Shown here piece by piece: positions 980 to 36,344 of a DNA stretch of 64,000 nt (position 1 is its first letter; every line of letters starts with the position of its first letter). The notes under the pieces were generated by a model, which was not told where the DNA came from, ran no database searches, and saw only the letters and a list, made by a program, of their open reading frames with translations. Origin of the DNA: Thermoplasmata archaeon (GTDB taxonomy: Archaea; Thermoplasmatota; Thermoplasmata; Lutacidiplasmatales; UBA184); assembly GCA_035502015.1 (NCBI GenBank), contig DATJVA010000001.1, positions 676-64,675 of the forward strand, given 5' to 3'. Both the position numbers and the translations under genes were made by a program.

Positions 980-1002
980 CCGGGGCGGGGATCAGACCCC
1001 GG
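980..1002. terminator. Hairpin CCGGGG-11 nt-CCCCGG between convergent atpC and atpI; both stop codons lie in or beside it
   Basis: Inverted repeat read directly: ccggggcggggatcagaccccgg. It sits between two convergent stop codons (TGA at 977-979 on + and TGA at 992-994 on -). Confidence 0.3.
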
Positions 1003-2986
1003 ATTCCCGCATGATCGGTCCCGCGGGGGCCGCGCTCTCGTCCGCGAGAGGAGAGACCGTGCGGCTCCGGGCGGCACCGAACGGACGGAACACTTTGCCG
1101 TTGCCGCTGTAGAACTTCGAGAAGTACTCGACGAAGATCAGCCGCGCCCCCTGGATCCCGGGCTCGAACACCCCGATGATGACGTTGAAGCTCTGGCCGA
1201 CCACGATGATGACGAGGCCGGCGACGATCCCCACGACCGTGCCGCCGAGCACGAGGCCGCTGCCGATCTGGTTGATGACGAGAGCGAGGATGACGCTCGC
1301 GAGCAGGATGCCGACCAGTCGCGTGTAGGAGAGGATGTGGCTCACGACCTCGATGAGCCCCATCATTCCCATCTGGAGCCCCTCGCCGAGGAGCAACATC
1401 GCGAGTCCCACTCCGAGGCAGGCGTACCAGAGGACGATCAGCGGGTCCGCCGAGACCGAGGTGGCGCGGTGGATGACCGCGAGGCCGAAGAAGGCGACCC
1501 CGAAGGCGAAGATGATCCCGCCCGACTTCGCCACCACGCCGCGCTTGTGGTGGTGGAAGTACTCCTTGAGCGCCCCCATCAGGAAGCCGAGAACGACCAT
1601 CCCGAGCCCGACGTAGCCGGCGAAGAGGAGGTACGTCGGCACGGTCTTCTCGATCTCGATCCCCTTGAAGTGGAACAGCGGCGTGAGCAGGTGATAGCCG
1701 AAGAACTCGTTGGTGACGACCCCGAGCCCGATCGCGAGCAGGCAACCGGGGATGAGCGCGTAGGCGAGCTGCTGCATCCCTTTCGGTCCCATGATCATCT
1801 TGACGAAGTTGCGGCCGAACTTCGGGAGATGGGCGGCGCCCGGGAACCCGGCGATCATCCAGAGCGAGATCAGCAGGATGACGAGTCCGTAGCCCCAGTC
1901 GCTCAGCATGAACCCGAAGAAGATCGGGAAGGCGATCGCGAAGACGGTGGTCGGGTCCCACTCGGTCGCCTGGGGGATCGAGTAGAACCGGACGAAGAAC
2001 TCGAACCGTCGGATCCCGCGGGGGTTCGACATCATCGTCGGCGGCTCCTCGTCCGTCGGGACACGGTAGAAGAACGTCCGGCCCCCGCTCTCGCGGTCGA
2101 TGACCGTCTGGAGGCGGGCCACGTCCCGCTCGGGAACCCACGCCTCGAGGGCGAACGCCGAGTGGCTCGCACCGAGCTTGGCCACGACCTCCGCCTTCCG
2201 GTTCTCGATCTCGAGCGCCTCGCCGATCGCGCTGACGAGCGGGTACCACTCCTTCGAGATCGCGAGCAGGCGAGAAGCGATCTCCGCACGTCGCTGGCGG
2301 GTGGTTTCCTGGCGCGCGCGGAGGGCCGCGAGCTCCTCGGAGACCGTCCCCGCGAGGCGCGGTACCGCCGTCAGTCGCACCCCCCTCGCTTGGGAGAGCC
2401 GCGCGAGCGCGTCCGCTCCGGTCGGCGGGATCAGGATGAGGAACCGGACGATGTCCCCCGACGGCCCGAGCAGCAAGTGAACGTCCGTCTCGGCCGGCAG
2501 GGAGGCGGCGAACGCCGTGTAGCTGTCGGCCGTCGCGGTGCCGTAGAAGGTGTGGAAGTTCTTCGAATCGAGGAACTCGAGTCGGTCGGGATAGAACGAG
2601 ATCTTCTCGAGCAGCTCGGCCGTCGAGGCAGCCGCCTTCTCCTCCGTGGCGAGCCGGTCATCCTCGCGCCGCAGCTCGCCGACCTCGTCGTCGATCGTGA
2701 CGGTCTTCGCCGCGGCGAGGATCTCGGCGACCGAGTCGAAGAGGTGCGGCGGGCCACCGTGGACCGGCGGCAGCGCCGCGAGGAGTCCGCGGAACCGCAG
2801 GGTCTCGTCCCCGACCTGGCGGAGCGTCTCGGGGCCGCGCTCGGGCCCGAGCTCGGCCATCGTGGGCGGAGAGAGCGGTTCGATCTGCGCCACTCGGAGG
2901 TCGTGGAGGACGGTGAGGATCCGCTCCTCGTCGTCCTTGAGGCCAAGGAGGCCGACCTTGGCCATCCGGACCGGACGTAGCGCCAC
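992..2986 (-). CDS. atpI: A-type ATP synthase subunit I (membrane a-subunit)
   Basis: 664 aa. Hydrophilic N-terminal half plus a C-terminal polytopic membrane domain typical of the V/A-type a/I subunit. Alternative start at MAKVGLLGL (M8). Confidence 0.85.
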   Translation of the reverse strand: MALRPVRMAKVGLLGLKDDEERILTVLHDLRVAQIEPLSPPTMAELGPERGPETLRQVGDETLRFRGLLAALPPVHGGPPHLFDSVAEILAAAKTVTIDDEVGELRREDDRLATEEKAAASTAELLEKISFYPDRLEFLDSKNFHTFYGTATADSYTAFAASLPAETDVHLLLGPSGDIVRFLILIPPTGADALARLSQARGVRLTAVPRLAGTVSEELAALRARQETTRQRRAEIASRLLAISKEWYPLVSAIGEALEIENRKAEVVAKLGASHSAFALEAWVPERDVARLQTVIDRESGGRTFFYRVPTDEEPPTMMSNPRGIRRFEFFVRFYSIPQATEWDPTTVFAIAFPIFFGFMLSDWGYGLVILLISLWMIAGFPGAAHLPKFGRNFVKMIMGPKGMQQLAYALIPGCLLAIGLGVVTNEFFGYHLLTPLFHFKGIEIEKTVPTYLLFAGYVGLGMVVLGFLMGALKEYFHHHKRGVVAKSGGIIFAFGVAFFGLAVIHRATSVSADPLIVLWYACLGVGLAMLLLGEGLQMGMMGLIEVVSHILSYTRLVGILLASVILALVINQIGSGLVLGGTVVGIVAGLVIIVVGQSFNVIIGVFEPGIQGARLIFVEYFSKFYSGNGKVFRPFGAARSRTVSPLADESAAPAGPIMRESGV

Positions 2987-3490: not shown

Positions 3491-4135
3491 TTAGGCGGCG
3501 GCCGCACTTTCCGCCTCCTGCTCGATCTTCCGCTTCACCGTCTTCAGCATGCTGAACGAGTCGCGTTCCATCTCGTCGAACCGGAACTTGATGTATCGCA
3601 CGACCCCCTCGAGACGCGGGACGAGAACGTTCTCGATCGCGCTCGCGCGACGCTTCGTCTTCTCGATCTCTTTGAGGAGCCGGCGCAGCGAGTTCTCCTT
3701 CTCGGCGATGTCGAGGACGATCCCGTAGATCCGCTGGAACCGGCGGACCGATTCTTGCACCGAGATGGGGAGGTCGAGGAGGTCGGCGGTCGAGACGGGC
3801 GAGTAGCCGCCGCGGTCGACCTGAGGGGTCCGCACGCCCATGACGTTCTTGGTCGTCACCGCGACCGGCGCGATATCCGGGAGGAGCATCGAGATGTTCT
3901 CGAGTCGGGTCGGGCCCTCGAGCATCTCGGCCATTCGGATCGATTCGTATCCCCGCTCGACCCTCGCCTTGAGGTCGCCGCGCAGCTTCATCGCCTCGCG
4001 CGAGGCAGCGAAGAACTCGACGATCAGCGCCGAGCGCTTCAGCTTGAGGAGGTTGAGGCCCTTCTTCGCGACGACGATCCGTCGGCGCGTCCTCAGGAGC
4101 TCGAGGCGGGTCGGTCGGACGGTTTCGGCGGGCAT
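3491..4135 (-). CDS. atpD: A-type ATP synthase subunit D (central stalk)
   Basis: 214 aa. Basic N-terminal helix (TRLELLRTRRRIVVAKKGLNLLKLKR) and C-terminal helix typical of V/A-type subunit D. Immediately downstream of atpB. Confidence 0.85.
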   Translation of the reverse strand: MPAETVRPTRLELLRTRRRIVVAKKGLNLLKLKRSALIVEFFAASREAMKLRGDLKARVERGYESIRMAEMLEGPTRLENISMLLPDIAPVAVTTKNVMGVRTPQVDRGGYSPVSTADLLDLPISVQESVRRFQRIYGIVLDIAEKENSLRRLLKEIEKTKRRASAIENVLVPRLEGVVRYIKFRFDEMERDSFSMLKTVKRKIEQEAESAAAA

Positions 4136-4162
4136 CGGCGGCCTCTTCGCGCTCCCTCGTAC

Positions 4163-5596
4163 CTACGACGGCGGCGCGGTCCCCTTCTTCGGCCGGTACT
4201 TCTCGATGAACTCGGGGCGGATCCGCTTCAGCTCGGAGTCGGGGAAGTCGGAGAGGATATCCCACGCGAGCGCGAGGCTCTCGTCGATCGTCCGGTCCTC
4301 GTCCGGGCGCTGGTTGACGAACTCCGTCTCGAACCGGTCGGCCATCCTGAGGTAGAGGCGGTCGGTCGCGCTGAGCGCCTCCTCGCCGACGATCGCGGAG
4401 AGCGACCGCTGGTCCTTTCCCGTCGCGTACGCCGCGAACAGTTGGTCGGAGAGCCCGCGGTGATCCTCCCGCGTCCGTCCCTTGCCGATCCCCTGGCCCA
4501 TCAGTCGCGAAAGGGACGGCAGGATGTCGATCGGCGGGTAGATGCCGCGACGCTGGAGGTCACGGCTGACGTAGACCTGGCCCTCGGTGATGTACCCCGT
4601 CAGGTCGGGGATCGGGTGCGTCACGTCGTCCGCGGGCATCGTCAGGATCGGGATCTGCGTGATCGACCCCTTGCGCCCGTGGATCTTGCCCGCGCGCTCG
4701 TACAGGGTCGCGAGGTCGGTGTAGAGATACCCCGGGTACCCCCGGCGGCCCGGCACTTCCTCGCGCGCGGCCGAGACCTCGCGGAGCGCCTCGCAGTAGT
4801 TCGTCATGTCGGTCAGCACGACCAGGATGTGGAGGTCGCGCTCGTAGGCGAGGAACTCGGCGGCGGTGAGCGCCATGCGCGGCGTCACGACGCGCTCCAT
4901 CGACGGGTCGGAGGAGAGGTTCAGGAAGACGACCGCGCGCTCGAGCGCACCGGTCGACTCGAACTCTTTGAGGAAGAAGTTCGCCTCCTCGCTCGTGATC
5001 CCCATCGCGGCGAAGACCACGGCGAACCCCTCGGAAGAGTCCCGGAGCTTCGCCTGCCGGACGATCTGAGCCGCGATCTGATTGTGCGGAAGGCCCGCGC
5101 CCGAAAAGATCGGGAGCTTCTGGCCCCGAACGAGCGTGTTGTTGACGTCGATGGTCGAGATCCCGGTCTGGATGAACTCGCTCGGCTCCTCGCGCGAGTA
5201 CGGGTTCATCGCGCTCCCGACGATCTCGAGCTGCGTCTCGCTGACGATCCTCGGGCCGCCGTCCCTCGGCTCGCCGAGGCCCGTGAAGACGCGACCGAGC
5301 ATCTCGTCCGAGACGGGAAGCTTCGCGACCTCACCGAGGAACTTGACGCTCGTCTTCTCGAGATTGATTCCCATCGTCGCGCCGAACACCTGGACGATGG
5401 CGAGCCCCTTGCGGGAGTCGAGCACCTGGCCCTGGCGCCGCTCGCCGGTCGGCAGCTGGACCTCGACGATCTCTCCGTAGGCCGCGTTCGCGACGTCGCG
5501 GACGAACAGAAGCGGTCCTGCGACCCGGTCGATCGTGCGGTAGTCGACGGGCACGGCCGAAACATCTCCCGCCGAGGAGGTACCTTTCGCCGCCAT
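4163..5596 (-). CDS. atpB: A-type ATP synthase subunit B (regulatory)
   Basis: 477 aa, clear A/V-type B-subunit sequence ([34 protein letters not shown]... [12 protein letters not shown]). Its start shares 1 nt with the atpA stop (TGATG). Confidence 0.95.
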
Positions 5597-8500
5597 CAGC
5601 TGCTCCCGGCGGCCGTGAGCGCTCCGACCGCGAGCTCGGTCTCCCGCTCAAGATCGTCGAACTGCTTGTCCGCCTCCGCCTCGGGAATCCACTTCATGCG
5701 CGAGAGCTTCGTGCGGACCGGCATCTGCTGCAGGTTCGCGACCGTCACGCCCTTTGCGACGGCATCCTGTTCGAGGTCACCGAACTTGAGGATCATGCGC
5801 AGCATCTTCGCCTGCTTGCCGATCGATGTGTACGTGTCGACCTCGTCGTACGCGCTCTGCTGGAGGTAGTCCTCCCGTAGCATCCGCGAGACGTCGAGGA
5901 TCGCTTTCTCCCGCTCGGGAAGCGCATCGACGCCGACGAGCTGCACGATCTCCTGGAGCTCGGCCTCCTTCTGGAGCGTCTCGAGCGCTTTCTGGCGGAG
6001 CGCGGAGAAGTCCTTCGAGAGCGACTGGGAGTACCACGACTCCAAGTCGCGCGTGTAGAGCGAATAGCTCTGGAGCCAGTTGATCGACGGGAAGTGGCGC
6101 CGGGACGCGAGCGAGGCATCCAGCGCCCAGAAGACGCGGGCGATTCGGAGCGTGTTCTGGCTCACCGGCTCCGACGTGTCTCCGCCGGGAGGTGAGACGG
6201 CTCCTACCACGGTGATGGACCCGGTGCGCCCCTCGGGGGAGACCGTGACGACGCGGCCCGAGCGCTCGTAGAACTCGGCGACGCGTCGACCGAGGTACGC
6301 GGGATATCCTTCCTCTCCGGGCATCTCCTCGAGGCGCCCGGAGATCTCGCGCATCGCCTCGGCCCATCGACTGGTCGAGTCGGCCATCAGCGCGACGTCG
6401 TAACCCATGTCCCGGTAATACTCGGCGATAGTGATCCCGGTGTAGACACTCGCCTCGCGGGCGGCGACCGGCATGTTCGAGGTGTTCGCGATCAGCACCG
6501 TCCGTTCCATCAGCGGTCGGCCCGATTTTGGGTCCTGGAGCTTCGGGAACGTTGCCAGCACTTCCGCCATCTCGTTGCCGCGTTCGCCACAGCCGACGTA
6601 GACAACGATGTCCGAGTCGGCCCACTTCGCGAGCTGCTGTTGGGTGACGGTGTTGTGCAGGAGGATGGCGCCGAACCCCCCGACGAAGTTCGCCCCAAAT
6701 TCCGGCAGCGCGAAGTCGAAGACGTCGAACGGACCCACCTCTTCCCGCACCTCGACGACCTCGTCGCAGAAGACCCATTCCAGCATGTCGCGCAGCCGCG
6801 AGGCGGCGGGCTCGAGCGAGTCCAGCGACCCGAGGGCGCGGTACGGGTTGATGAAGCGCTGGAAGGTGTATGCTCCCATGCGCTCGCCGTTCCCGATATA
6901 GTTGTGGATCTCGATGCCGTCCTCGAGGAGCGCGGAGTAGGTGAAGTGGTCCCGATAGAGTCTCTCGATCGCGTCGGGAGAAAGAGGGACAACGTCGGTG
7001 GCCGTGTAGGACGTGCGCTTCGACTCGGTGTACTGCCGGATCGCCGCGAGCTTGGGATGGTCAGCGCCCACGGCGTCGTAGAGCTTGTCCAGATTGAAGA
7101 TGCCCCGTACGAAGAGGCGGAAGTAGGTCGTGCCGTCGACGACGCGCCGTCCCATCGAGCAGGTGATTCCGAACCGAGAAAGGGCGTACGCGAGCTCGGT
7201 CTGGAGCGCCCCGCTCTTCGTACAGAACTCGATCTCGCCTTGCGACAGCCCGCCGTCGCCGAGGTAGTACCCCCGGAGGAACCCGCCGAGGACGTCGTTG
7301 TCGGAAGCAAGAACCGCGCCCGGGATGCGTTTCTCGCCGGAATTCCTCCCGGACCCGAACCAGTCCATGAGGTGGACGAGCGAGGTGCTTGCCACGAGCA
7401 CGTTCGGAGTCTTGCCGGGGGTTCGCTCAACCTTGCCCTCGATTCCGAAGAGATTGCGGGTGAGGGCGAGGAAGCGGCTCAGAAGCATCTCGTCCGAGTT
7501 GGTGAACACCACGGTCCGGTTGCCGCGGATGTAGCCTTCGGAGGCGAAGAGCCCCAAGAACTCTCCGAGTTCCTCCGACATGGCGTCGGGAATCCGTAGG
7601 GCCTTCCCCTTTCGCTGAAGTTCCGGTGGCTGCGGTCGGAGCGCTCGGGTCCCGACGGGGCTCGGGGTTCGACGAACCGATGCGATGTAGTCTCCTGGTC
7701 GCAGGTCGCGGGCGGCCCTCTCCTGGAGCGCGCCGTCCGGGGTGAACGCGAAGAGTCGGTGCACCGGAGTGACGCGGACGCTCTTCCCCGAGCGCGTCCG
7801 CACGCGTACGAGAGTGTCGCTCTTTCCCCTGTAGGCGGTGTGGGAGCGGCTTCGGACGAGCGACCCGTTGACCAGCGAGAACAGTTCGATTGGCTGCCGG
7901 AGGTCGACCCACTCATCGGAACCCTCCGAGCGTACTTCGCCCCTCGCCCGGACGGAAGCGTACAGCGTCTCGATGCTGACGACTTCCCCGGTGCCGAGTA
8001 GGACTGGGGTCTCTCCTCCGACACACTTGCCCGACCCGAACGGCCCCGGAATGCAGGCGGTCCCCCCCTTGGCCACGGGATAGAACGTATCGATCACTCT
8101 CTGCCCGGTCACGAGCGGAATGTCGGGCGCGAGTTTCTGGGTGACCGGGCGAGGGATTCGGACGACCCACTTGTGGGAGAGATAGAGCGGGACCGTCCCG
8201 GTCGCCGTCGTGAGCGAGCCGATCGGGTCGCGGATCGTGTACTTGCCGCTCTTCAGGTCGGCCAGGGTCCCGCGGAGTCCGGGCGGCACTAGGATCTTGT
8301 GAACGATGAGCGCGGTCTCCTGGACCGTGCCGAGTATTGTCCCGGGGGTGACCTCCGTGCCGACCTTGGCGGTCGCGGAGAACTCCCAGACGGCCTTCTC
8401 GTCGAGCGGGGTCGCCGACGTTCCGCGGGTGATGAAGTCGCCCACGGACTTCTGGACGACGTCGAGCGGGCGCTGGATCCCGTCGTAGATCGACTTCAGG

Positions 8501-8772
8501 AGCCCCGGCCCGAGCTCGACGCTGAGCGCTTGGCCGGTGCTCTCGACCGGGTCGCCCGGCCGGATACCGGTAGTGTCCTCGTAGACCTGAACGGTGGCCG
8601 TCCCCTCCACGAGGCGGATGATCTCTCCGACGAGGCCCAGCGTCCCCACGCGGACGACGTCGTACATCTTCGCATCGACCAATCCCTCGGCGATGACCAC
8701 GGGGCCGGAAACTCGTGCTACCGATCCTGCCATGTTCTTCCCTTCGCTCGATTCGAGTGATTCGTAAGACAC
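5596..8772 (-). CDS. atpA: A-type ATP synthase catalytic subunit A, interrupted in-frame by a 458-aa intein (extein about 600 aa)
   Basis: N-extein ends ...GPFGSGK (P-loop), followed by Cys. C-extein resumes at [32 protein letters not shown] after ...LLHN. The ATG abuts the atpF stop. Confidence 0.95.
6652..8025 (-). mobile_element. Full-length intein with LAGLIDADG homing-endonuclease domain, inserted in the AtpA P-loop (GPFGSGK|C ... HN|T; VMA-a-type site)
   Basis: Cys+1 at codon 250 (nt 8025-8023), verified against the DNA. Terminal His-Asn at codons 706-707, next residue Thr. Two LAGLIDADG blocks ([10 protein letters not shown] and [14 protein letters not shown]). Confidence 0.85.
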
Positions 8773-8774
8773 GT

Positions 8775-9110
8775 CTACGTCGCGACCGAGAGCGTCACGC
8801 CCAGGACCCGCTTCGCAAGCGCCTCGATGCTCTCGACCTCGTATTCACCGCTCGGAGTGGGAACGAAGACGACGAGCGGGTGGAGGGAGGCGTCGGCGCT
8901 GGCGCGCTGGGACTCGGAGAGCTGCGCGCGGATCGATTGGGTCGCAATGACGAGCGAGAAACCGCCTGCCATCGCCCTTTCGAACTCCGAAACCGCGTTG
9001 TCCGGCGTGACCTCGACGACGTCCTTGAGGCCGATCAGGCGGAACCCGATCGCGAGCTCCCGCTCGCCGACCACGATCGTACGCCCCGGCTCTTTCGGCG
9101 TCTCGGGCAC
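8775..9110 (-). CDS. atpF: A-type ATP synthase subunit F
   Basis: 111 aa. First gene of the minus-strand atpF-A-B-D-H-I string. The F-subunit-like sequence ends 2 nt before the atpA ATG. Confidence 0.8.
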   Translation of the reverse strand: MPETPKEPGRTIVVGERELAIGFRLIGLKDVVEVTPDNAVSEFERAMAGGFSLVIATQSIRAQLSESQRASADASLHPLVVFVPTPSGEYEVESIEALAKRVLGVTLSVAT

Positions 9111-13174: not shown

Positions 13175-15520
13175 ATGGCGGCGTCCCCGGCCGCGACGGC
13201 GGTTGCACCGGACGGCTGGCTCCTCGACATCACGGAGAGCGACGACGGTCGGTCGGTCGTCCTCTGGACGAAGGAGCGGCGGAGCGGCCGCGTTCGGAGG
13301 AGCGCGGTCGAGTACCGGCCCCCGTTCCTCGTCTCGGGTACGCGGAACGACCTCGCGCTCCTCGCCCGGCGATTGACCGACCACCCCGACGTCGAGTCGG
13401 TCGCGCTCGGTTCGGGCCGCCCGTCGCTCTACGACCGGCGGAACCGCCCCGTCCTGTCGGTCGTCCCGGCCCGCAACCCGGCCCGCCGCACGCTCGCGCG
13501 AAGCGTCGATGCGCTCGGCGGCTACGAGCGGTTCTCGCTCTACGACGTCGACCTCGGGCCACCGCAGCTCTACCACCTCGCCCATGCCCTCTACCCGTTC
13601 GCGCCCGTGGTCGGGCGGGCACCCGCGCTCCGCGCGACCGAGCCGCCCGAGACGATCGACTACGCGTCCCCGCCGTTGCGCGTCGCCCCGCTCGAGGTGC
13701 ACCTCGCCGGGGAGCGGAGAGGTCGCATTCCGCCTCCGGACGCGCGGCTCGGCGCGGTGCGGCTCGACGACGTGACGATCGACGGGCCGGAGGAGGACGT
13801 CCTGCGCGCGCTCGTCGACGCGCTCGCGCGCACCGACCCGGACGTCCTCCTTACGGAGGGCGGTGACGCGTTCGACCTTCCCTGGCTGTACCGCCGCGCG
13901 GCCGCCTGCGGGCTCTCGCCCGCGGAGTTCACCCTGGGGCGCGAGCGCGTGAGGTTCCGGCCGACCCGACCGGCCCGTTCGTTCGAGTCGTACGGACGGG
14001 TCCTCCACCGGGACGCCTACTATCCGCTGCCCGGCCGGTTCCACGTCGACCGGGAGAACTCGTTCCTCTACCGCGACGCCGAGATCGCCGGGCTCGTTGA
14101 CGCCGCCCGGCTCTCCCGCCTCTCGCTCACGACGGTCGTGCGCCAATCGCCGGGGACCTGCTTCACCGCGATGGAGATGGCCCATGCGCTCGAGCTCGGG
14201 GCGCACGTCCCCTGGAAGAAGAACCGGCCCGAAGGGTTCCGGCGGGCGGACCGGCTCGTCGCCGCCGACCGCGGCGGGGTGATCTTCCTCCCGCCGGTCG
14301 GGGTGCACGACCACGTCGACGAGTTCGATTTCGCGAGCCTCTACCCGCACATCATGGTCACGAAGAACCTCTCCGCGGAGACGCTCGAGTGCCGATGCTG
14401 TCCGGAAAGCCCGCTCCGCGCGCCCGGCCTCGGCTACCGCTCCTGCACGCGGCGCACCGGCCTCATTCCCCGTACCCTCGCGCCGCTCCTCGAGCGTCGC
14501 TTGGCCTACAAGGCGGCGCTCAAACGGCCGGGGGTCGAGCCGGAGGAAGCGGTCCGCCTGAAGCGGCGGGTCAAGATGCTCAAGTGGATCCTCGTCACCG
14601 CGTTCGGCTACCAGGGATACCGGAACGCCCGGTTCGGGCGGATCGAATGCCACGAGGCGATCAACGCCTACGCACGCGACCTATTGGCCCGGCTCCTCCC
14701 GGAGGCGGAGCGGGCCGGCTACTCGGTCCTCCACGGGATCGTCGATTCCCTCTGGCTGCGCCCGAACGACGTCGCGCACCCGCCGGACCCGGAGGCGTTC
14801 GCGCGCAGGATGAGCGAGAAGGTCGGGATGCCGCTCGGCTACGAGGGGCGGTACCGCTGGATCGTCTTTCTGCCGGCGGTGACCCACGGGCTCGGTGTCC
14901 CGAACCGCTACTACGGCTACTACGAGCACGGCGAGTTCAAGCTGCGCGGGATCGGCGCCCGACGGCACGACACGACCGGGCTCGTCCGCCGGTTCGAGGC
15001 GGAGGTGCTCGCGCTCCTGAGGACCGCCCGGGACGCGAACGGGGTCCGCGCGCTCGTGCCGCGCGTGCTGGCCCGCGCCGACCTGTTCGCCCGAGAGGTC
15101 CGCGTCGGGTCGTGGCCCGTCGACGAGCTCCTCATCGCCCACCGGATCGGCCAGGCACCCGAGGCGTTCGTCACGTTCACCGACTCGGTCGCGGCGTTGC
15201 GGCAGCTCCGCGAGGCGGGGGCGGAGCGGGGGCCGGGCGAGGTGGTGCGGTTCGTCATCCTCGACCGGCGGAGCCGATCGTTCCGTGACCGGGTACGACC
15301 GGGCGAGCTCCTCGAGGGGAACGAACGGTACGATACCGGTGCGTACCTCGAGATCCTCGCCCGCTCCGCGGAGACCCTGCTCGCTCCGCTGGGGGTCGAC
15401 CGCGAGCAGCTCCGTGCGCGCTGGGGGATCGCGCCCGCCCCCGAGCGGGAGGAGTACCACTCTCCGGAGGAGCTCCACCAGTCGCGACTGGAACCGGCCG
15501 CGCCCGACGTGAGATATTAA
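13175..15520 (+). CDS. polB: Family-B DNA polymerase paralog, predicted catalytically inactive (motif C HGIVDS instead of Y.DTD.; Exo I D->P)
   Basis: 781 aa. Motif A DFASLYPHIMVTKNLSAETL is conserved. The KxxxNSxYG region is degenerate (KWILVTAFGYQG). Motif C YSVLHGIVDSLWL has lost the first catalytic Asp. The exonuclease I DxE is replaced by APLEVHL. Confidence 0.8.
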   Translation: MAASPAATAVAPDGWLLDITESDDGRSVVLWTKERRSGRVRRSAVEYRPPFLVSGTRNDLALLARRLTDHPDVESVALGSGRPSLYDRRNRPVLSVVPARNPARRTLARSVDALGGYERFSLYDVDLGPPQLYHLAHALYPFAPVVGRAPALRATEPPETIDYASPPLRVAPLEVHLAGERRGRIPPPDARLGAVRLDDVTIDGPEEDVLRALVDALARTDPDVLLTEGGDAFDLPWLYRRAAACGLSPAEFTLGRERVRFRPTRPARSFESYGRVLHRDAYYPLPGRFHVDRENSFLYRDAEIAGLVDAARLSRLSLTTVVRQSPGTCFTAMEMAHALELGAHVPWKKNRPEGFRRADRLVAADRGGVIFLPPVGVHDHVDEFDFASLYPHIMVTKNLSAETLECRCCPESPLRAPGLGYRSCTRRTGLIPRTLAPLLERRLAYKAALKRPGVEPEEAVRLKRRVKMLKWILVTAFGYQGYRNARFGRIECHEAINAYARDLLARLLPEAERAGYSVLHGIVDSLWLRPNDVAHPPDPEAFARRMSEKVGMPLGYEGRYRWIVFLPAVTHGLGVPNRYYGYYEHGEFKLRGIGARRHDTTGLVRRFEAEVLALLRTARDANGVRALVPRVLARADLFAREVRVGSWPVDELLIAHRIGQAPEAFVTFTDSVAALRQLREAGAERGPGEVVRFVILDRRSRSFRDRVRPGELLEGNERYDTGAYLEILARSAETLLAPLGVDREQLRARWGIAPAPEREEYHSPEELHQSRLEPAAPDVRY

Positions 15521-23534: not shown

Positions 23535-23756
23535 CTAGGCGTCGTCGGTCGGCGGAGGAGCGACCGGGCTCCCATCGTCCCGGACCTCGGTCTCGAAGAC
23601 GAGCGAGCCCATGTAGTCGCACTTCTGGCAGTGGTACACCTGGCCGACGATCGACCCGGCGATCAGCGAGACCCTCACCGACCCGCACTTCGGGCAGAGG
23701 AGGACGGTCTTACCCTGTTTTGCCCGACGACGCATCGTCGTCCTCCGCGTCGTCAT
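23535..23756 (-). CDS. Small zinc-ribbon protein
   Basis: CPKCG...(19)...CQKCDY C4 ribbon. Overlaps the gyrA 3' end by 25-46 nt depending on start. Confidence 0.45.
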
Positions 23757-26364
23757 CGCCCTCGTCGTCCGGAGCGGGAGTGTCGGAGCCGTCCTCCTCG
23801 GGGGTCTCCTCCTCGTCGGAGGTCTCCTCGTCCGCCGGAGGCTCAGGAGACTCCGGGCCCGGCTCGGGGGAAGGCTTCGCGCCGGACCCGGCCGGTGCGC
23901 TCGTTTCGATCGGGGGCTCGAGGATGACGGCGTCGCGCACGGTATCGCCCTCGCCGAGGCGGATGACGCGTACGCCGAGAGTGTTCCGGGCCTGGGACCG
24001 GATCCCCTTCACGGCCATGCGGATCGTGATCCCGTGCTCGGTCGTGACGAGCGCCTCGCTCGCGTCCGTCGTCGGGAGGACGGCGACGACCGACCCGTTG
24101 CGACCGCCGGTCTTGATCGTCCGGACCCCCTTCGCGCCGCGGCGCGTGCGGCGGTAGTCCGCGGTCGGGCTCCTCTTACCGTAGCCGGTCGTCGTGAGCG
24201 AGAGCAGCATCGGGAACCGTTCGTCGACGGGCGCCATCGCCACCACCTTGTCGCCCTTCTCCTCGGAGAGCCGGACCCCGATCACCCCGTACGTCGCGCG
24301 GCCCATCGGCCGCACCTCGGTGAGCGGGAACCGCACGAGCTGGCCGGCGAGCGTCGCGAGGATGATCTCGGTCGCCTCGTTCTCCACGAGGACGACGTCG
24401 ACGAGCTCGTCCCCCTCCTCGAGGAGGACCGCCTGGATGCCGTTCGTCCGGATGTTCTGGTACTCGTCGAGGTTCGTCCGCTTCACGATCCCCTTGCGCG
24501 TCGCGAAGACGAGCGAGCCCGCCGCGGCGATGTCCTTGAGCGGAAGCAGGGTCTGCACGCGCTCGCCGTCCTTGAGTTTCGGGAGGAGGTTGATCACCGC
24601 CTTCCCTTTCGAGTGGCGGCTCCCCTCGGGGAGCTCGTACGCCTTCAGCCGGTAGACGCGGCCGAGGTTGGTGAGGAACAGCACGTCGTCGTGCGTTCGC
24701 GTGACGAAGGTACGGATGACGAAATCCTCCTCCTTCGTCTCCATCTGGATCAGCCCTCGCCCTCCCCGGCGCTGGCGCCGGTACTGGTCGAGCGGGAGCC
24801 GCTTGACGTAGCCGTCCCGGGTGACCAGGACCACGACGTCCATGTCGGGGATCAGGTCCTCGAGGGTGCGCTCGGTGAACGCCGGGACGATGCGGGTCCG
24901 GCGCTCGTCCCCGAACCGCTTCTTGAGGTCGGTGAGCTCGTCCGCGATCAGCTGGTCGAGCAGCTTCGGGGAGGCGAGCACCGCCTTGAGCTGTTTCGCG
25001 AGGGCCTCCTTCTCCGCCTTCTCCTTCTCGACCGACTCGCGCTCGAGCGCGGTCAGACGCGCGAGCCGCATGTCGAGGATCGCCTTCGCCTGCTCGCTCG
25101 AGAGGAGGAACTTTCCCATCAGGTTCGTCTCGGCGACCTGGACGTCCTTCGAGCGGCGGATGATCCGGATCACCTCGTCGATGTGGTCGATCGCGGTGAG
25201 GAACCCCTCGAGAAGGTGGAGGCGCTCCTCGGTCTTCCGAAGGTCGAACTTCGTCCGGCGGGTGAGGATGGTCCGCCGGTGGTCGATGTGCAGCGCGAGC
25301 AGCTCGAGCAGCGAAAGGACCCTCGGGTGCCCTTCGACGAGACAGAGGTTGATCACGCCGAAGCTCGTCTCGAGCGGTGTGTGCTCGTACAGCCGGTTCA
25401 GGACGATCTCGGACGGAGCGTCGCGACGCAGCTCGAGCACGACGCTCGTCCCGTGGCGGTCCGATTCGTCCCTCAGGTCGGTGATCCCGTCGACCCGCTT
25501 TCCCTTGACAAGGTCGGCGATCAGCTGGAGAAGGTCGGCCTTGTTGACCTCGTACGGGATCTCGGTGAGGACGATCTCGTCCTTCCCCGCACGCTCGCGG
25601 ATCTCCGCGGTCCCGCGCAGGTGGATCATGCCGCGGCCGGTCTCGTACGCCTCTCGGATCCCTTCCGTCGAGAGGTAGCCGCCCGTCGGGAAGTCCGGTC
25701 CCGGAACGACCTTCATCACGTCGTCGAGGGTCGCATCGGGGTGGGCGAGGAGCAGAAGGAGCGCGTCGACGACCTCCCCGAGGTTGTGGGGGGGCATGTT
25801 GGTCGCCATGCCGACCGCGATGCCGGCCGAGCCGTTGACGAGCAGATTGGGGACCTTCGAGGGCAACAGGAGCGGTTCCTTCAGGGTCCCGTCGAAGTTG
25901 TCGTTCCACTCCACCGTCTCCTTCTCGATATCGAGAAGGAGCTCCTCGGCGATCGCCGACAGCCGCGCCTCGGTGTACCGCATCGCGGCGGGGGAGTCGC
26001 CGTCGATCGAACCGAAGTTCCCCTGACCGTCGATGAGCGGGTAGCGCAGGCTGAACGGCTGCGCCATCCGAACGAGCGCATCGTACACGGCGAGGTCGCC
26101 GTGCGGGTGGTACTTCCCGAGCACCTCGCCGACCGTGCGCGCGCTCTTGCGGTACGCCCGGTCGTGGGTCGCCCCGGACTCCCACATCGACCAGAGGATG
26201 CGTCGGTGGACCGGCTTCAGGCCGTCACCGGCGAGCGGCAGAGCCCGCCCGACGATGACGCTCATCGCGTAATCGATGTACGAGCGGTGCATCTCCTGCT
26301 CGAGCGCGCGGTCGTGGACCCGGTCGATCGGCGCTTCCGGGACCTCGGTCGGCGGCGCGCTCAT
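23710..26364 (-). CDS. gyrA: DNA gyrase subunit A
   Basis: Start at [16 protein letters not shown]. Has [34 protein letters not shown], six beta-pinwheel C-terminal repeats and an acidic tail. Its ATG overlaps the upstream TGA (ATGA). The 110-aa Arg-rich N-terminal ORF extension was rejected. Confidence 0.95.
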
Positions 26365-27758
26365 GGAGCGGACCCCTCGGTCGGACCGAGCTGCTCGGCG
26401 ATGACCCGGTCGGCCGCCGCGAGGAACGTGTCGCGCGTCCCGTGCGGGATCGTCGCCCCGCTCGCCACGCGATGGCCTCCTCCTTCGCCGCCGACGCTCG
26501 CGGCCGCGACCCGGCAGGCCGCCGCGAGGTCGAGGCCCCGGTCGACCTGCCGGAGCAGTCCCCGGGAGCTCACCTTGGTCGGTCCCGGGTCGCCGCTCGA
26601 GAAGACGAACACCGGATGGTCGGGCGGAAGAAGGTAGTTCATCGCGAGACCGGCCTGAGTGCCCGCGAGGGTGGTCTCGGGGCTCTCGAACCACCGGAGG
26701 AATCGCAGCGAATTAACCCCGTCGTTCTCGACCCTCAGGAGCCCCCGGAGGATGCCCGCCCGCCACTCGCTCTCCGCCGTGCGGACCCGTTCCGCGGAAC
26801 GGCCGTCGCCGAGGGCGTACGCGACCCCCACTCCCGGGACCCCCGCCCGACCGGCGGCGTTCTGAAGGTTCGCCACCTCCTCGGCGTCGAGCCCGAGCGA
26901 CGGCACGAACCAGCGTTCCTGGTCGACGACGTTCGCCGACTCGGGGACCACGCCGGCCCGGGTCAACCGTTCCTTGAGGGCCGTGACGAGTCTTCGGCCC
27001 TCCGTATCGGTGAGCTTGGCGGGCGAGCGGGCCGGGTCGAGTCCCAGCTCGTTCAGGAACGGCCCGACCGCCTCGCGGCGGCCGGAGAGCCCCCGGACGA
27101 ACGGGTCGATGCTGTTCGTGAGCGCGTCGCCGAGGCTCGGACCGAACAGCGCGACCCCGGGCCGGCGCACGATGTGCGACCGGCGCACGGCCTCGTCGAC
27201 GAGCAGCGCGTTGAGGCCGCGGAACCCGCCGATGTGCTGGCGGTCGGCGATCGCCCCGGAGAGTCCCCACGGGGCGTTGTCCCAGTTCACCGGGTCGAGG
27301 AAGACGGTGTAGAGCCACGTGAGCGTCGAGGCGCACAGCTCGTTCATCCCGTCGACGCCCCAGTCGAGAGGGTTCACGAACGCGACGTGCGGGGGAAGGG
27401 CCGGAGGGTTCGGCACCCCCGGGTACTTGTGGTGGTCGAGGACGACCACGGGCTGACGGTGCTCGGCGAACAGGTCGAGCCAGCTCGCGCCCGTATCGAC
27501 CACGAGCACCGGGCCCGCGGTCGCGCCGAGGAGAGCGGAGACCCGGTCCCGCTCGACGCCCGTGAGCGCGGTCGCCTGAGCCGGGTAGCCGAGGCGCTGG
27601 AGCGCGCGGAGGGCACAGGAAGCGGCCGCGATCCCGTCCCCGTCATAGTGGTAGATCACCCGCCAACGCTGAGGGTGGGCGAGGAGGACAGAGCGGGCGC
27701 GCTCGAACTCGTAAGTGTAGCGAGGGTCAGCGACGAGTCCGTCCGGACCCGAGGGCAT
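26361..27758 (-). CDS. DHH-family phosphoesterase, archaeal RecJ/GAN-like
   Basis: Start at [12 protein letters not shown] (shares 1 nt with the rps15 stop, TGATG). DHH motifs [13 protein letters not shown] and VVVLDHHK, plus a DHHA1-like C-terminus. Confidence 0.8.
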
Positions 27759-33026: not shown

Positions 33027-36000
33027 CTACTTCCGCTTCCCGCGCCGCGGGCGAGGACGCTTTCGACGTGGGGTCACCGGTAGCGCCGCCGGCCGATCCC
33101 CCGTCGCGCTCCCCGGCTCGGCCGTCCCGTAGAGCGGGTCCCCGGTGAGGGGATGCTCCTCGAGCCACGCGACCCCCTCGACGTACTCCGCGAACGCTTC
33201 CAGGCTGGTGAAGAGGGGAATCCCGAGCTCGACCGCCCGGCGTCGGAGGATGTACTCGTCCTCGAGCATCCGCTCGAACTTCTCCTGGGTGAGGGAGAGC
33301 GGGACGTTCAGGAGGAGGTCGATCCCGCCGCCGTCCAGCGCCTCGAGCACGTTCGGGTGACGCTCGGGCTCCGAGACCTTGTGGAGGACCCGGACCCCGC
33401 GGACGCTGCGCGCGGTGAGGAACGCCTGCGTGTCCTCGGTCGCGGTGATCCCGAGGCCGAGCGAGCGCAGCCGGACCGCCGTGGGGAGGAGCTGCTCCTT
33501 GAGGACGGGGCCCCCGACCGAGAGAAAGACGGTCCCCCGGCGCGGAACGAGCTTGACCCCGGTCGCCACGAGCGCCTTCACGAGCGCGTCCGAGAACGTC
33601 GGCCCGAAGCAGGCGACCTCCCCGGTCGACTGCATCTCGACGCCGAGCAAAGGGTCGGAGCCCGTCAGCTGCAGGAAGGAGAACTGGGGTACCTTCACTC
33701 CCCAGCGGTTCGGGGGCAGCGGGGCGACCCCCTCCTTCGAAAGGGGCTTTCCGAGCATCGCACGGGCGGCCTCCCGCAGGAGGGGCATCCCGGTCGCCTT
33801 CGTGAGGAACGGGAGCGACCGGCTCGCCCGGAGGTTGAGCTCGATCACCTGGTAGCCGTGGTCCTTCACGAGGAACTGGATGTTGAACGGCCCGCGGATG
33901 CGCAGGTTCCGGGCGAGGGCGCTCGCGGCCGAGAGGAGCTCCGCTTGGACCTCGGACGACGTGTGGCGCGGCGGCAGGCAGAAGATCGCGTCACCGGAAT
34001 GGACCCCGGCCCGTTCGACGTGTTCGAGGATGCCGCCGACGAGCACGCGCTGCCCGTCCGAGATCCCGTCGAGTTCGAGCTCGTCCGCCCCTTCGACGAA
34101 CTTCGTGATCACCACCGGGTGCTCCGGGGAGACCCGGGCCGCCTCAGAGAGGAACCGGCCGAGGTCGTTGCGGCCGGAGATCACCCGCATCGCCTGTCCG
34201 CTCAGCACGTAGGACGGCCGGACGAGGACCGGGTAGCCGACCTCGTCCGCGAACGAGCTCGCCTCGTCGACCGTCGTGAACGCACGCCACGCGGGCTGCG
34301 GGATGTGCAGCTTCTCGAGCAGCCGGGCGAACTGCGCCCGGTTCTCCGCCGTGTCGATCGACTCGGAGGCCGTCCCGAGGATCGGGATGCCGCACATGTG
34401 GAGGAGCGGTGTGAGGTTCTGGGCGAGCTGGCTCCCGACGCAAGTGACGACCCCGTCGAACGACTCGAAGTCCTGGATGTCGCGGACCCGTTCGAGCGTG
34501 ATCTCCTCGAAGTAGAGCCGGTCCGAGCGGTCGTAGTCGGTCGAGACGGTCTCGGGGTTCGAGTTGAGGACGGCGACCCCGGGCACGCCCTCCGCCTTCA
34601 ACCCGTCCACGAGGTTCATCGTCGACCAATCGAACTCGACGCTCGAACCGATCCGGTACGGCCCGGCGCCGATCACGAGCACGGAGCCCTTCGTCATCGG
34701 GCGCACATCGTCGGCGTCGGCGCGGTAGGTCAGGTAGAGGTAGTTGGTGCGCGCGGGCCACTCGCCGGCCAGTGTGTCGATCATCCGGACGCGCGGACGG
34801 ATGCCGGCCGCGAGACGGCGTCGGCGCACCTCCTCCTCATCGAGCCGGGCGGCGCGCGCGATCGCGCGGTCGGAGAGGCCGAGCTCCTTCGCTCGGCGGA
34901 CCAGGGGCTCGGATAGCCCCGAGCCACCGGCCGCCGCGACCGCCCGGTCGATCGCCTCGACCTCCCCGAGCGCATCGACGAACCACCGGTCGATGACGGC
35001 AAGGCGGCTCACCTCCTCCGCCGAGATCCCGGCGCGCAGCGCTTCGAGGACGTGGAACAGGATGTCCGGGGTCGGAGTGGTGAGGCCGGCGACGATCTCT
35101 TCCCGCGGTCGCGGCTCCGCGGGGGGCACGAGGTCCGCCCGGGGGTCCCCCATGCGGACCGCCTTCTCCATCGCCTCGGGGAACGACGCACCGATCCCCA
35201 TCACCTCCCCGACCGACTTCATCGCCGGCCCGAGCCGTCGGTCGGCCCGCTCGAACTTGGCGAGGTCCCAGCGGGGCAGCTTCACGACGACGTAGTCGAG
35301 CGCCGGTTCGAACGCGGCGGTCGTGACGCCGGTGATCCGGTTCTTCAGCTCGGGGAGGGAGTAGCCGAGGGCGAGCTTCGCGGCGACGTAGGCGAGCGGG
35401 TAGCCGGTCGCCTTGCTCGCGAGCGCGCTCGACCGGGAAAGACGCGCGTTCACCTCGATCGCGTAGTACTCCTCGCTGTTCGGGTCGAGGCAGAACTGGA
35501 TGTTGCACTCCCCCACGATCCCGCACGCGTCGGCGGCCCGGAGCGCCGCCTGCCGGAGCATCTGGTACTCGAAATCGGTGAGCGTCTGGCTCGGCGCGAT
35601 CACCACGTTGTCCCCGGTGTGCACGCGCATTCCGAGGACGTTCTCCATGTTGCAGACGGTGAGCGTGTTGCCCCGGAGGTCCCGGACGACCTCGTACTCG
35701 AGCTGCTTGAACTCCCCGACGTACCGCTCGAGGAGCACCTGCCCGACCGGGCTCGCACGGACACCGCGAGCGACGACGTCGCGCAGCTCCTCGCGCGTCC
35801 GAGCCACCCCTCCGCCGCGGCCGCCGAGAGTGAACGCGACGCGGACCATCACGGGGTAGCCGAGCACGTCGGCCGCGTCGAACGCCTCGTCGACGGAATA
35901 GACCGCCCGGCTGGGGAGGGTCGGAACGTGCGCTTTCGACATCACGCGGACGAACTTCGCACGGTCCTCGGTCGCCCGGATCCCGGCGAGAGGGGTTCCG

Positions 36001-36344
36001 AGCACCCGGGTCGAGGTCCTCTTCAGGATCCCTTGGTCGGAGAGCTGGACGCCGCAGTTGAGCGCCGTCTGTCCGCCGAACGAGAGCAGGATCCCCTCCG
36101 GGCGCTCGCTCGCAAGGATCGGCGCCACGAACTCGGGCGTGAGCGGTTGGAAGTACACGCGCCCGCGCTTCGGAGGGTCGGTCTGGAGCGTCGCGATGTT
36201 CGGGTTGATGATGACGGCGTAGACGCCCTCCTCGTCGAGGGCCTTGAGGCACTGGCTTCCCGAGTAGTCGAACTCGCCCGCCTCGCCGATCTTGAGCGCG
36301 CCGCTCCCGAGGAGGACGACCTTGGACGGCAGGGAGGGGCTCAT
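33027..36344 (-). CDS. carB: Carbamoyl-phosphate synthase large subunit
   Basis: Start at MSPSLPSKVVLLGSGALKIGEAGEFDYSG (ATGA overlap with the carA stop). Two ATP-grasp halves plus an MGS-like domain. Extra basic tail PRRKRPRPRRGKRK. Confidence 0.95.
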   Translation of the reverse strand: MSPSLPSKVVLLGSGALKIGEAGEFDYSGSQCLKALDEEGVYAVIINPNIATLQTDPPKRGRVYFQPLTPEFVAPILASERPEGILLSFGGQTALNCGVQLSDQGILKRTSTRVLGTPLAGIRATEDRAKFVRVMSKAHVPTLPSRAVYSVDEAFDAADVLGYPVMVRVAFTLGGRGGGVARTREELRDVVARGVRASPVGQVLLERYVGEFKQLEYEVVRDLRGNTLTVCNMENVLGMRVHTGDNVVIAPSQTLTDFEYQMLRQAALRAADACGIVGECNIQFCLDPNSEEYYAIEVNARLSRSSALASKATGYPLAYVAAKLALGYSLPELKNRITGVTTAAFEPALDYVVVKLPRWDLAKFERADRRLGPAMKSVGEVMGIGASFPEAMEKAVRMGDPRADLVPPAEPRPREEIVAGLTTPTPDILFHVLEALRAGISAEEVSRLAVIDRWFVDALGEVEAIDRAVAAAGGSGLSEPLVRRAKELGLSDRAIARAARLDEEEVRRRRLAAGIRPRVRMIDTLAGEWPARTNYLYLTYRADADDVRPMTKGSVLVIGAGPYRIGSSVEFDWSTMNLVDGLKAEGVPGVAVLNSNPETVSTDYDRSDRLYFEEITLERVRDIQDFESFDGVVTCVGSQLAQNLTPLLHMCGIPILGTASESIDTAENRAQFARLLEKLHIPQPAWRAFTTVDEASSFADEVGYPVLVRPSYVLSGQAMRVISGRNDLGRFLSEAARVSPEHPVVITKFVEGADELELDGISDGQRVLVGGILEHVERAGVHSGDAIFCLPPRHTSSEVQAELLSAASALARNLRIRGPFNIQFLVKDHGYQVIELNLRASRSLPFLTKATGMPLLREAARAMLGKPLSKEGVAPLPPNRWGVKVPQFSFLQLTGSDPLLGVEMQSTGEVACFGPTFSDALVKALVATGVKLVPRRGTVFLSVGGPVLKEQLLPTAVRLRSLGLGITATEDTQAFLTARSVRGVRVLHKVSEPERHPNVLEALDGGGIDLLLNVPLSLTQEKFERMLEDEYILRRRAVELGIPLFTSLEAFAEYVEGVAWLEEHPLTGDPLYGTAEPGSATGDRPAALPVTPRRKRPRPRRGKRK

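Follow-up and report, generated by a model that had tools for sequence, protein, structure and literature searches.

A probable class-1 VMA-b intein with a LAGLIDADG endonuclease domain in the ATP synthase subunit A gene of a soil Thermoplasmata archaeon

The window analysed here, a stretch of 64,000 nucleotides from an uncultured Thermoplasmata archaeon, carries on its reverse strand ATP synthase genes in the order atpF-A-B-D, as in relatives. The gene atpF (8775..9110; exact match to HTT44393.1, V-type ATP synthase subunit F) lies directly upstream of atpA, as it does in the related loci L065 and L067. Directly downstream atpB (4163..5596; exact match to HTT44391.1) overlaps the atpA stop codon. 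The reading frame of atpD (3491..4135) was taken from the ORF list, and the syntenic gene of L065 carries PF01813 (ATP-synt_D). All features described below are on this reverse strand.

The maximal atpA ORF in the ORF list of the window (5596..8772) codes for 1058 amino acids. Its first possible start, GTG 8772, follows the atpF stop at a distance of 3 nt and lacks a Shine-Dalgarno-like sequence. Upstream of ATG 8733, i.e. Met14 of this ORF, a Shine-Dalgarno-like GAAGGGAAG is present, the N-termini of related AtpA proteins begin at the equivalent start, and the resulting 587-aa extein has the length of the closest intein-free homologues. The true start is probably Met14. The ORF of the original prediction does exist, yet the lengths of its product (1058 aa) and extein (600 aa) probably have to be corrected to 1045 and 587 aa, in which case the precursor gene spans 5596..8733 (1045 codons and stop). 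The 1045-aa product is identical to HTT44392.1 from a Thermoplasmata archaeon MAG, which is labelled in GenBank as V-type ATP synthase subunit A only.

Within the 1058-aa ORF the motif GPFGSGK (aa 243-249) is followed by an in-frame insert of 458 aa (aa 250-707; 6652..8025). The 236-aa N-extein (8026..8733) ends with this first part of Walker A and matches Pfam ATP-synt_ab_N, ATP-synt_ab_Xtn and the first positions of ATP-synt_ab. The C-extein (5596..6651; 351 aa and stop) starts with Thr+1; with this threonine Walker A is complete (GPFGSGK-T). Removal of the insert gave a contiguous AtpA: the joined exteins aligned with the 587-aa intein-free homologue P0043 without gaps at 93% identity, and matched PDB 1VDZ as well as NF003220 (884.5 bits, cut-off 470) in one contiguous stretch. 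The match to TIGR01043 was also a single stretch, at 928 bits slightly below the equivalog cut-off of 972. Based on these alignments the host protein can be identified as the catalytic subunit A of an A-type/V-type ATP synthase. The whole precursor was matched over residues 16-1037 by NCBIfam NF011287, the equivalog model of intein-containing V-type ATP synthase subunit A, with 1089.3 bits against a cut-off of 1238. Judging by the roughly 32% identity to Thermococcales inteins, the cut-off was missed because the sequence is too diverged; the layout agrees. PolB (13175..15520), GyrA (23710..26694), CarB (33027..36497) and the other long ORFs of the window had no HINT or LAGLIDADG match.

The insert (458 aa, 50.6 kDa) begins with Cys1 (codon 8023-8025), directly after GPFGSGK, and ends in LLHN with His457-Asn458 (Asn codon 6652-6654); the Thr+1 codon follows at 6649-6651. 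The original prediction of a 458-aa element with Cys1, two LAGLIDADG blocks, His-Asn and Thr+1 was correct to the base. All four profiles which bear on it scored above their cut-offs: LAGLIDADG_3 (PF14528, 55.5 bits, cut-off 22.5, in two stretches), Intein_splicing (PF14890, 48.4 bits, cut-off 35.8), TIGR01445 intein_Nterm (48.2 bits, cut-off 24.5) and TIGR01443 intein_Cterm (16.0 bits, cut-off 15.6).

Five segments can be distinguished. The N-terminal part of the HINT domain (aa 1-118, 7672..8025; approximate boundary) contains block A with Cys1 and block B with T86-P-V-H89 (7759..7770); TIGR01445 covers aa 1-92, and the segment superimposes on the TvoVMA mini-intein 4O1S with 45% identity and an rmsd of 1.1 Å. 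A basic linker follows (aa 119-146, 7588..7671; pI 12), which is poorly conserved with a mean family identity of 44%. The homing-endonuclease (HEN) domain (aa 147-315, 7081..7587), covered by PF14528 in two stretches, has LAGLIDADG motif 1 at aa 153-166 (7528..7569; Glu163 codon 7537-7539) and motif 2 at aa 246-260 (7246..7290; Asp257 codon 7255-7257). The helical accessory domain (ACD; aa 316-417, 6775..7080; approximate boundaries) is homologous to the helix-turn-helix-like ACD of TliVMA, as judged from the end-to-end alignment to 7QSS and from helices at 324-414 in the structural model; it has a conserved motif. The C-terminal part of HINT (aa 418-458, 6652..6774; TIGR01443) contains block F (6676..6729) with Asp437 and block G, GAILLHN (6652..6672), with His457-Asn458. 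Thus, blocks A, B, F and G were all found and the class-1 residues are complete (Cys1, T86-P-V-H89, D437, H457-N458, Thr+1). The Trp/Cys/Thr triad of class 3 was absent from the intein, and position F:4 is Asp. Profiles, residues and flanks agree with the original prediction of a class-1 intein with a LAGLIDADG endonuclease in the P-loop of A-ATPase subunit A, and the sequence evidence supports a class-1 intein with a nested double-motif endonuclease domain which splits Walker A. Base composition was considered as a sign of recent foreign origin; it gave no signal, the intein having the same GC (0.651 versus 0.653 and 0.663 in the exteins) and GC3 (0.84 versus 0.87) as its host gene.

The junction reads GPFGSGK/[intein]/TVTQQQ and lies between extein residues K236 and T237. 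The original prediction had named this the 'a' site, which was a mislabelling. The K/T site in the archaeal P-loop (P. horikoshii K240/T241) is VMA-b, and VMA-a is the site of yeast PI-SceI, the Gly/Cys bond of VG/CGERGNEM (P. horikoshii G260/C261) (Swithers 2009, PMC2814812; Beyer and Iwai, 2022, PMC8966425). The VMA-a equivalent of the window atpA, extein G256/C257, is located 20 residues downstream of the P-loop site and is uninterrupted; by insertion site the window intein is no VMA-a member. Searches with phmmer matched the same-site inteins 7QSS (E = 3e-57, end to end), 7QST (E = 1.8e-37) and 4O1S (E = 1.1e-34). By position and homology, the window intein can be assigned to the VMA-b allelic family. 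The reconstituted intein-less DNA site reads TGCATTCCGGGGCCGTTCGGGTCGGGCAAG/ACCGTCACCCAACAGCAGCTCGCGAAGTGG.

An AF2 model of the intein, built from a 28-sequence alignment of database matches, had a pLDDT of 91.2 and a pTM of 0.91. In Foldseek its best PDB match was 7QSS (E = 1.5e-40, TM 0.82/0.87, rmsd 3.6 Å), and the HINT fold was supported by matches to 7QSS, 4O1S, 6RPP and 4E2T. In the modelled HEN domain the elements alpha-beta-beta-alpha-beta-beta-alpha occur twice, with matches to I-DmoI at a TMt of about 0.7.

The closest known system is TliVMA from Thermococcus litoralis (7QSS, PMC8966425). It shares the host protein, the VMA-b K/T point, Thr+1 and the modules HINT, LAGLIDADG HEN and helical ACD, at about 32% identity. 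An acidic residue is present at both LAGLIDADG motif positions in either intein, with Glu in motif 1 of the window copy and Asp in that of TliVMA. In other LAGLIDADG enzymes, e.g. I-DmoI, a Glu does not preclude activity. Further differences concern length (458 versus 429 aa), block F (GANF, without His, versus THNF), residue 420 (Cys versus Phe), pI (6.5 versus 10.2) and host, a GC-rich soil Thermoplasmata archaeon versus a hyperthermophile. PhoVMA of Pyrococcus horikoshii (7QST; TM 0.66/0.82) occupies the same site on a HINT and HEN scaffold. In this 376-aa intein the LAGLIDADG aspartates are gone, DNA is neither bound nor cut, and the ACD is different (PMC8966425); both acidic residues and an ACD resembling that of TliVMA are retained in the window intein. 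The Thermoplasma mini-inteins TvoVMA (4O1S) and Tac VMA (Senejani et al., 2001, as cited in PMC2814812) have the class Thermoplasmata and the VMA-b site in common with the window intein; with about 170-185 aa, however, they lack the endonuclease and the ACD. PI-SceI in Saccharomyces VMA1 resembles the window intein in its homologous host (V-ATPase subunit A), its class-1 and LAGLIDADG make-up and its size (454 aa), yet is no allelic relative: identity is 11-13%, TM about 0.5, its +1 residue is Cys instead of Thr, and its HINT domain harbors the DNA-recognition region as an insertion. The yeast precursor 9cop_A agrees with an insertion at the different, downstream site: its best stretch aligned query position 251 with chain position 732, which, counted by offset, places extein Cys257 at chain position 738.

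In 47 related loci the same K/T site holds an intein which is intact and encoded in a single frame. Carriers are about 45 species of soil Thermoplasmata and some Micrarchaeota; a homologous intein at the same codon is present in a bacterial V-type ATPase from a Margulisiibacteriota single-cell genome. For some Micrarchaeota, dependence on Thermoplasmatales hosts has been reported. In the set of 48 sequences, i.e. the 47 related loci and the window, overall identity was 42-72%, and T86, H89, E163, K232, D257 and D437 were invariant in all. H457 and N458 were invariant as well, the extraction pattern itself having required Cys1 and the terminal His-Asn. On average the HEN domain was as conserved as HINT-N (61% and 63% identity), and the intein dN/dS was 0.12-0.22. 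Mini-inteins of 158 aa were detected at the same site in other soil archaea (P0036-P0040). Many homologues were fragments, in some cases two ORFs on one contig (P0016 and P0031, P0023 and P0030). Split inteins or pseudogenes were considered for these and rejected; because the ends are out of frame and frameshifts occur also inside the essential extein, assembly indel errors account for them.

The distribution is patchy. On a neighbor-joining tree of 161 exteins, 41 with and 120 without intein, parsimony required at least 22 presence/absence changes, a rough count given the NJ/Fitch procedure, and the six exteins nearest to the window atpA were all intein-free. Carriers and non-carriers were thus interleaved in a manner which fits an ongoing homing cycle. 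No intein-free allele of the same species was found among the relatives; the nearest, the syntenic locus L065, had 85% nucleotide identity in atpA. We looked for a co-conversion tract around the junction by nucleotide identity to L065 and for an 'immune' target site. No clear tract emerged, and junction sequences of intein-free alleles displayed the same range and the same synonymous variants as the reconstituted sites. The intein dS (1.2-2.0) exceeded that of the flanking exteins (0.66-1.16). Taken at face value this could make the intein lineages older than the host divergence, from which transfer would follow; as the values approach saturation, we did not rely on them.

What the analysis shows directly is the anatomy, the homology, the predicted fold, the conserved catalytic residues and the patchy occurrence in close relatives; splicing and DNA cleavage by the window intein we infer. 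Very probably, the element is a canonical class-1 VMA-b intein of uncultured, GC-rich soil Thermoplasmata, composed of HINT-N, basic linker, LAGLIDADG domain, TliVMA-type ACD and HINT-C. In the 1045-aa precursor no P-loop would be formed before splicing. An N-S acyl shift at Cys1, aided by Thr86 and His89 of block B, would be followed by attack of the Thr+1 hydroxyl on the thioester, yielding a branched intermediate. Cyclisation of Asn458, aided by His457 and Asp437 of block F, would then release the intein, and an O-N shift would restore the peptide bond. The predicted products are a 587-aa AtpA (63.8 kDa) and the free 50.6-kDa intein. The latter is, on balance, likely to be still a site-specific endonuclease. 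In homing, it would cut an intein-less atpA across GGC AAG/ACC, and repair from an intein-carrying copy would duplicate the element. This part of the proposal leans on TliVMA, which cuts its reconstituted homing site in vitro (PMC8966425); the acidic overall pI of the window intein is a caveat. The term 'selfish mobile element' of the original prediction is appropriate at the population level, where carriers and non-carriers are intermingled within the closely related group; for the window copy itself, endonuclease activity is what we infer.

A tentative, though serious, alternative is that the intein splices but its endonuclease is dead. The element would then be fixed in its lineage and solely vertically inherited, with HEN and ACD as baggage or as parts on which HINT depends. 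Intein and extein divergence correlated with r = 0.86, so much of the history was vertical, as this explanation expects. It is also favored by charge: the intein has a pI of 6.47 and its HEN domain of 5.91, and the HEN domains of the window copy and its nearest relatives L067 and L001 are acidic (pI 5.5-6.0) against a family median of 9.0; active TliVMA has a pI of 10.23 and the non-binding PhoVMA of 5.45 (PMC8966425). Yet the DNA-facing beta-strands of the window intein carry a net charge of +5 (family median +4), and just one family-conserved basic position of this saddle is lost. This weakens a conclusion of HEN degeneration from the acidic pI, which we did not adopt; the pI remains a caveat. 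Four near-identical population variants had 2-5 amino acid changes in the intein and 0-1 in the larger extein, again in line with a dead endonuclease. Furthermore, deletion of the HEN domain largely abolishes splicing of TliVMA (PMC8966425), so purifying selection on HEN could stem from splicing alone. However, such structural dependence alone would not demand the invariance of Lys232 and the two catalytic acidic residues throughout 48 of 48 sequences which differ as widely as these do. In addition, with intein-free nearest exteins and interleaved carriers, a dead endonuclease would need repeated gain or precise loss.

A domesticated intein whose conditional splicing controls ATP synthase assembly post-translationally, e.g. 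gated by redox state or pH via Cys1 and Cys420, appears very unlikely. Cys420 is indeed Cys in 46 of the 48 family members and Phe in the Thermococcales homologues, and because the intein breaks the P-loop the precursor must be inactive. Conditional splicing is known from other inteins, such as that of mycobacterial DnaB, described in PMC6195587 as an oxidative stress sensor. The closest relatives thrive without the intein, which speaks against a function adopted by the host, and retention of the active site of the endonuclease points to selection for mobility. A broader scenario, in which an active, long-lived VMA-b homing cycle in soil Thermoplasmata crosses phylum and domain borders and is combined with redox-conditional splicing of the ATP synthase via Cys420, is improbable, if less so. 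That the insert is no intein at all, i.e. an assembly chimera, a transposon or insertion sequence, or an inserted domain which does not splice, can practically be dismissed; we found no points in its support. The same in-frame layout recurs in 47 independent assemblies and in four near-identical sequences from NCBI, ENA and JGI. Around 6652 and 8025, direct and inverted repeats and target-site duplications were limited to short, chance-sized matches, and a transposon-like insertion was rejected on these grounds. GC and GC3 match the host gene, the splicing residues are all in place, and a permanently split Walker A would disable an essential enzyme.

The window intein is a known kind of selfish element at a well-known archaeal site, real but ordinary. 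Its mechanistic weight is small: intein and site are textbook cases, and the protein is already in GenBank. For annotation it is relevant that in these MAGs atpA genes with an intein are frequently called as fragments or carry no label other than 'LAGLIDADG family homing endonuclease, partial'. Protein engineering may be able to draw on the family for mesophilic LAGLIDADG enzymes and for a splicing domain which tolerates Thr+1. Full-length VMA-b inteins with HEN and ACD are extended from the hyperthermophilic Thermococcales to a large mesophilic clade of soil Thermoplasmata, with at least about 45 species-level genomes. As close intein-free alleles exist, this clade offers a natural system in which the homing cycle may be studied.

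In an uncultured soil Thermoplasmata archaeon, atpA is interrupted by a true class-1 intein of the VMA-b type, which contains both an accessory domain and a LAGLIDADG endonuclease. It comprises 458 residues directly after GPFGSGK, running from a Cys (codon 8023-8025) to the Asn of ...GAILLHN (codon 6652-6654), and is followed by Thr; the originally predicted coordinates, 6652..8025 (minus strand), matched these codons exactly. All four profiles for the splicing and LAGLIDADG domains scored above cut-off, in agreement with the predicted domains: Pfam LAGLIDADG_3 (two stretches; 55.5 bits, cut-off 22.5), Pfam Intein_splicing (48.4 bits, cut-off 35.8), TIGR01445 (48.2 bits, cut-off 24.5) and TIGR01443 (16.0 bits, cut-off 15.6). 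Two LAGLIDADG-type motifs occupy intein residues 153-166 and 246-260. The predicted class-1 assignment was confirmed as well; Cys1, T86-x-x-H89 of block B, Asp437 of block F, His457-Asn458 of block G and Thr+1 are all in place and a class-3 signature is absent from the intein. Upon removal of the 458 residues the flanks aligned without a gap to P0043, an intein-free AtpA of 587 residues, with 93% identity. The spliced sequence matched NF003220 in one contiguous stretch (884.5 bits, cut-off 470), as it did 1VDZ, the mature A subunit of P. horikoshii, and TIGR01043; in the full unspliced precursor ATP-synt_ab was matched as two stretches. The original prediction thus withstood the two checks named for its refutation, that for domain hits and that for contiguous flanks. 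The syntenic locus L065 (DUF72, ferredoxin, OmdA, atpF, atpA, atpB, atpD) is intein-free and its atpA is 85% identical in nucleotides. Another kind of insertion is not suggested because neither flanking repeats nor a compositional difference between insert and host gene were found. A search of PolB, GyrA, CarB and other long ORFs of the window for further inteins was negative.

With two exceptions, the name given to the site and the choice of start codon, the original prediction was thus supported. It had assigned the intein to site 'a'. In P. horikoshii numbering the archaeal site 'b' is Lys240/Thr241 and the yeast site 'a' Gly260/Cys261 (Swithers et al., 2009; PMC2814812), and VMA-b is located in the P-loop (Beyer and Iwai, 2022; PMC8966425). 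Here, the intein is inserted at extein K236/T237, i.e. site b, and the a-site, G256/C257 of VVYVG/CGERGNEM, is uninterrupted; therefore, the 'a' label was wrong. In the yeast precursor 9cop_A the best stretch begins at query 251/chain 732, placing extein Cys257 at chain 738 by offset rather than by a residue-level alignment, which agrees with the intact a-site. The distinction matters because PI-SceI is no allelic relative (11-13% identity, TM about 0.5). The predicted 1058-residue frame does exist as the maximal ORF (5596..8772, minus strand), but its start codon was most likely incorrect. GTG 8772 is 3 nt beyond the atpF stop and lacks a ribosome-binding sequence, ATG 8733 (Met14) is preceded by GAAGGGAAG, the AtpA N-termini of relatives begin at the stretch matching Met14, and the resulting product is 100% identical to GenBank HTT44392.1 ('V-type ATP synthase subunit A [Thermoplasmata archaeon]', from a 65,358-nt MAG contig). 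Therefore, the precursor most likely has 1045 and the extein 587 residues.

The gene order is atpF-A-B-D, then atpI (V_ATPase_I, 992..2986), with genes at 992-2986 and 3491-9110, all on the minus strand. Directly upstream of atpF an OmdA/YdeI-like gene and a ferredoxin replace atpE/atpC; in L065 atpC and atpE are found past atpI on the other strand. Because of the 65-70% GC content, spurious ORFs of up to 704 residues overlap real genes in other frames or strands (3755-5869 (+), 6640-7599 (+), 5777-6778 (-) and many more); thus, ORF length alone is no evidence for a gene in the window. The tRNA-Ala(CGC) at 38106-38195 (+), 90 nt long with the anticodon given at position 38, probably contains an archaeal tRNA intron.

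With phmmer against PDB sequences the intein matched that of Thermococcus litoralis, TliVMA, end to end (7QSS, E = 3e-57). PhoVMA (7QST) was matched too, as was the mini-intein of Thermoplasma volcanium (4O1S), with 45% identity across HINT-N. AlphaFold gave a model of moderate quality when 6 sequences were used (pLDDT 70); with 28 homologues, a second model had a pLDDT of 91.2 and a pTM of 0.91. The best PDB match of this second model was 7QSS over the whole chain (E = 1.5e-40, TM 0.82/0.87, rmsd 3.6 Å). It also matched the endonuclease-containing inteins PI-TkoII and PI-PfuI; the HINT part superimposed on mini-inteins with an rmsd of 1-2 Å and the endonuclease part on I-DmoI with a TMt of about 0.7. 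Sequence and structure matches therefore indicate a five-part architecture with approximate boundaries: HINT-N (residues 1-118), a basic, variable linker (119-146), the LAGLIDADG endonuclease (147-315), a helical accessory domain with a conserved 14-residue motif (316-417) and HINT-C (418-458). End-to-end homology, whole-chain fold and the type of accessory domain are shared with TliVMA. At about 32% identity to the nearest characterised intein, this intein is a new and divergent representative of an established family.

Scanning a single genome for each GTDB species gave 64 loci. The same K/T junction was occupied by an intact intein in one frame in 47 of 67 loci collected, mostly soil 'Thermoplasmata archaeon' MAGs (456-462 residues, 55-69% identical to the window copy); the intein of L067 (P0001) was 72% and those of Micrarchaeota about 43-45% identical. 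T86, H89, D437, K232 and both LAGLIDADG acidic residues, E163 and D257, were kept in 48/48 sequences, window included. Cys1 and His-Asn were set by the search pattern and are not independent evidence of conservation. Larger K/T inteins of 526-530 residues (L041:6001-7578, L043:6001-7581, L046:5556-7145) and the likewise enlarged one of L047 (ORF around 6001-7008) carry an extra ~70-100 residues between HINT-N and endonuclease. The hosts are Thermoplasmataceae, Micrarchaeota and one Margulisiibacteriota single-cell genome, the latter with a bacterial V-type ATPase A subunit (GPFGAGK/CVTGETPV...IILHN/TVIQHQ); therefore, the same intein family crosses phyla and domains. MAG SMAG_U14971 has two different intein-bearing atpA loci (L018, DATJRQ010000025; L033, DATJRQ010000014), either from a bin of two mixed populations or as two atpA copies. 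Archaeal atpA with intein on short contigs named 'Acidimicrobiales bacterium' (L026, DASPVS010000484, 3.8 kb; P0005) most likely reflects MAG mis-binning. In relatives, atpA genes with the intein are often called as ORFs that are cut short or broken in two and end out of frame (P0002, P0006, P0012, P0016+P0031, P0023+P0030), with frameshifts within the extein, too. These fragmentary or duplicated ORFs are artefacts of indel errors in the assemblies and not split inteins; their annotation reads no more than 'LAGLIDADG family homing endonuclease, partial'.

Mean pairwise identity was 61% for the endonuclease, 63% for HINT-N and 50% for the accessory domain, and intein dN/dS against five relatives was 0.12-0.22. 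The equal conservation of endonuclease and HINT-N and the low dN/dS are seen as signs of purifying selection. Intein and extein divergence go together (Pearson 0.86), with the intein changing roughly twice as fast; thus, a good part of the history was vertical. Intein dS exceeded that of the flanking extein, with values near saturation. The best 120 extein matches in the protein database (82-94% identity) were all intein-free, as were the six exteins nearest to the window, and on a rough NJ tree comprising 161 exteins at least 22 presence/absence changes were required. Junctions of intein-free alleles fall within the range of reconstituted sites. Such a distribution would be expected if the intein went through a homing cycle, in which it invades and is lost time and again. 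The expected end-stage of this cycle are mini-inteins of 158-179 residues without endonuclease at the same P-loop site (GGFGTGK/C...LLHN/T) in other soil archaea (P0033, P0036-P0040, among them Euryarchaeota archaeon 13_1_20CM_4_64_14).

On balance, and with some reservation, we predict that this copy has an active endonuclease. The residues for catalysis are conserved, the net charge of the beta-saddle strands is +5 (family median +4) and just one family-conserved basic position is lost. TliVMA, the closest characterised homologue, cleaves its reconstituted site, PhoVMA, having lost the LAGLIDADG aspartates, does not, and the central base pairs cleaved by TliVMA and reactivated PhoVMA are AAAA and AAGA (PMC8966425); the window junction GGC AAG/ACC supplies AAGA. 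Against activity, the copy is among the most acidic of the family, with a pI of 6.47 overall and 5.91 for the endonuclease (family median 9.0, TliVMA 10.23, PhoVMA 5.45), and no intein-free allele of the same species was seen among the alleles compared. Further, purifying selection on the endonuclease could stem from an interdependence of HINT and endonuclease as reported for TliVMA (PMC8966425).

At the start of HINT-C, in the motif CDE, Cys420 (window 6766-6768) is shared by 46 of the 48 sequences of the family, whereas the Thermococcales inteins TliVMA and PhoVMA have a Phe. If Cys420 lay near Cys1, a redox switch would be possible.
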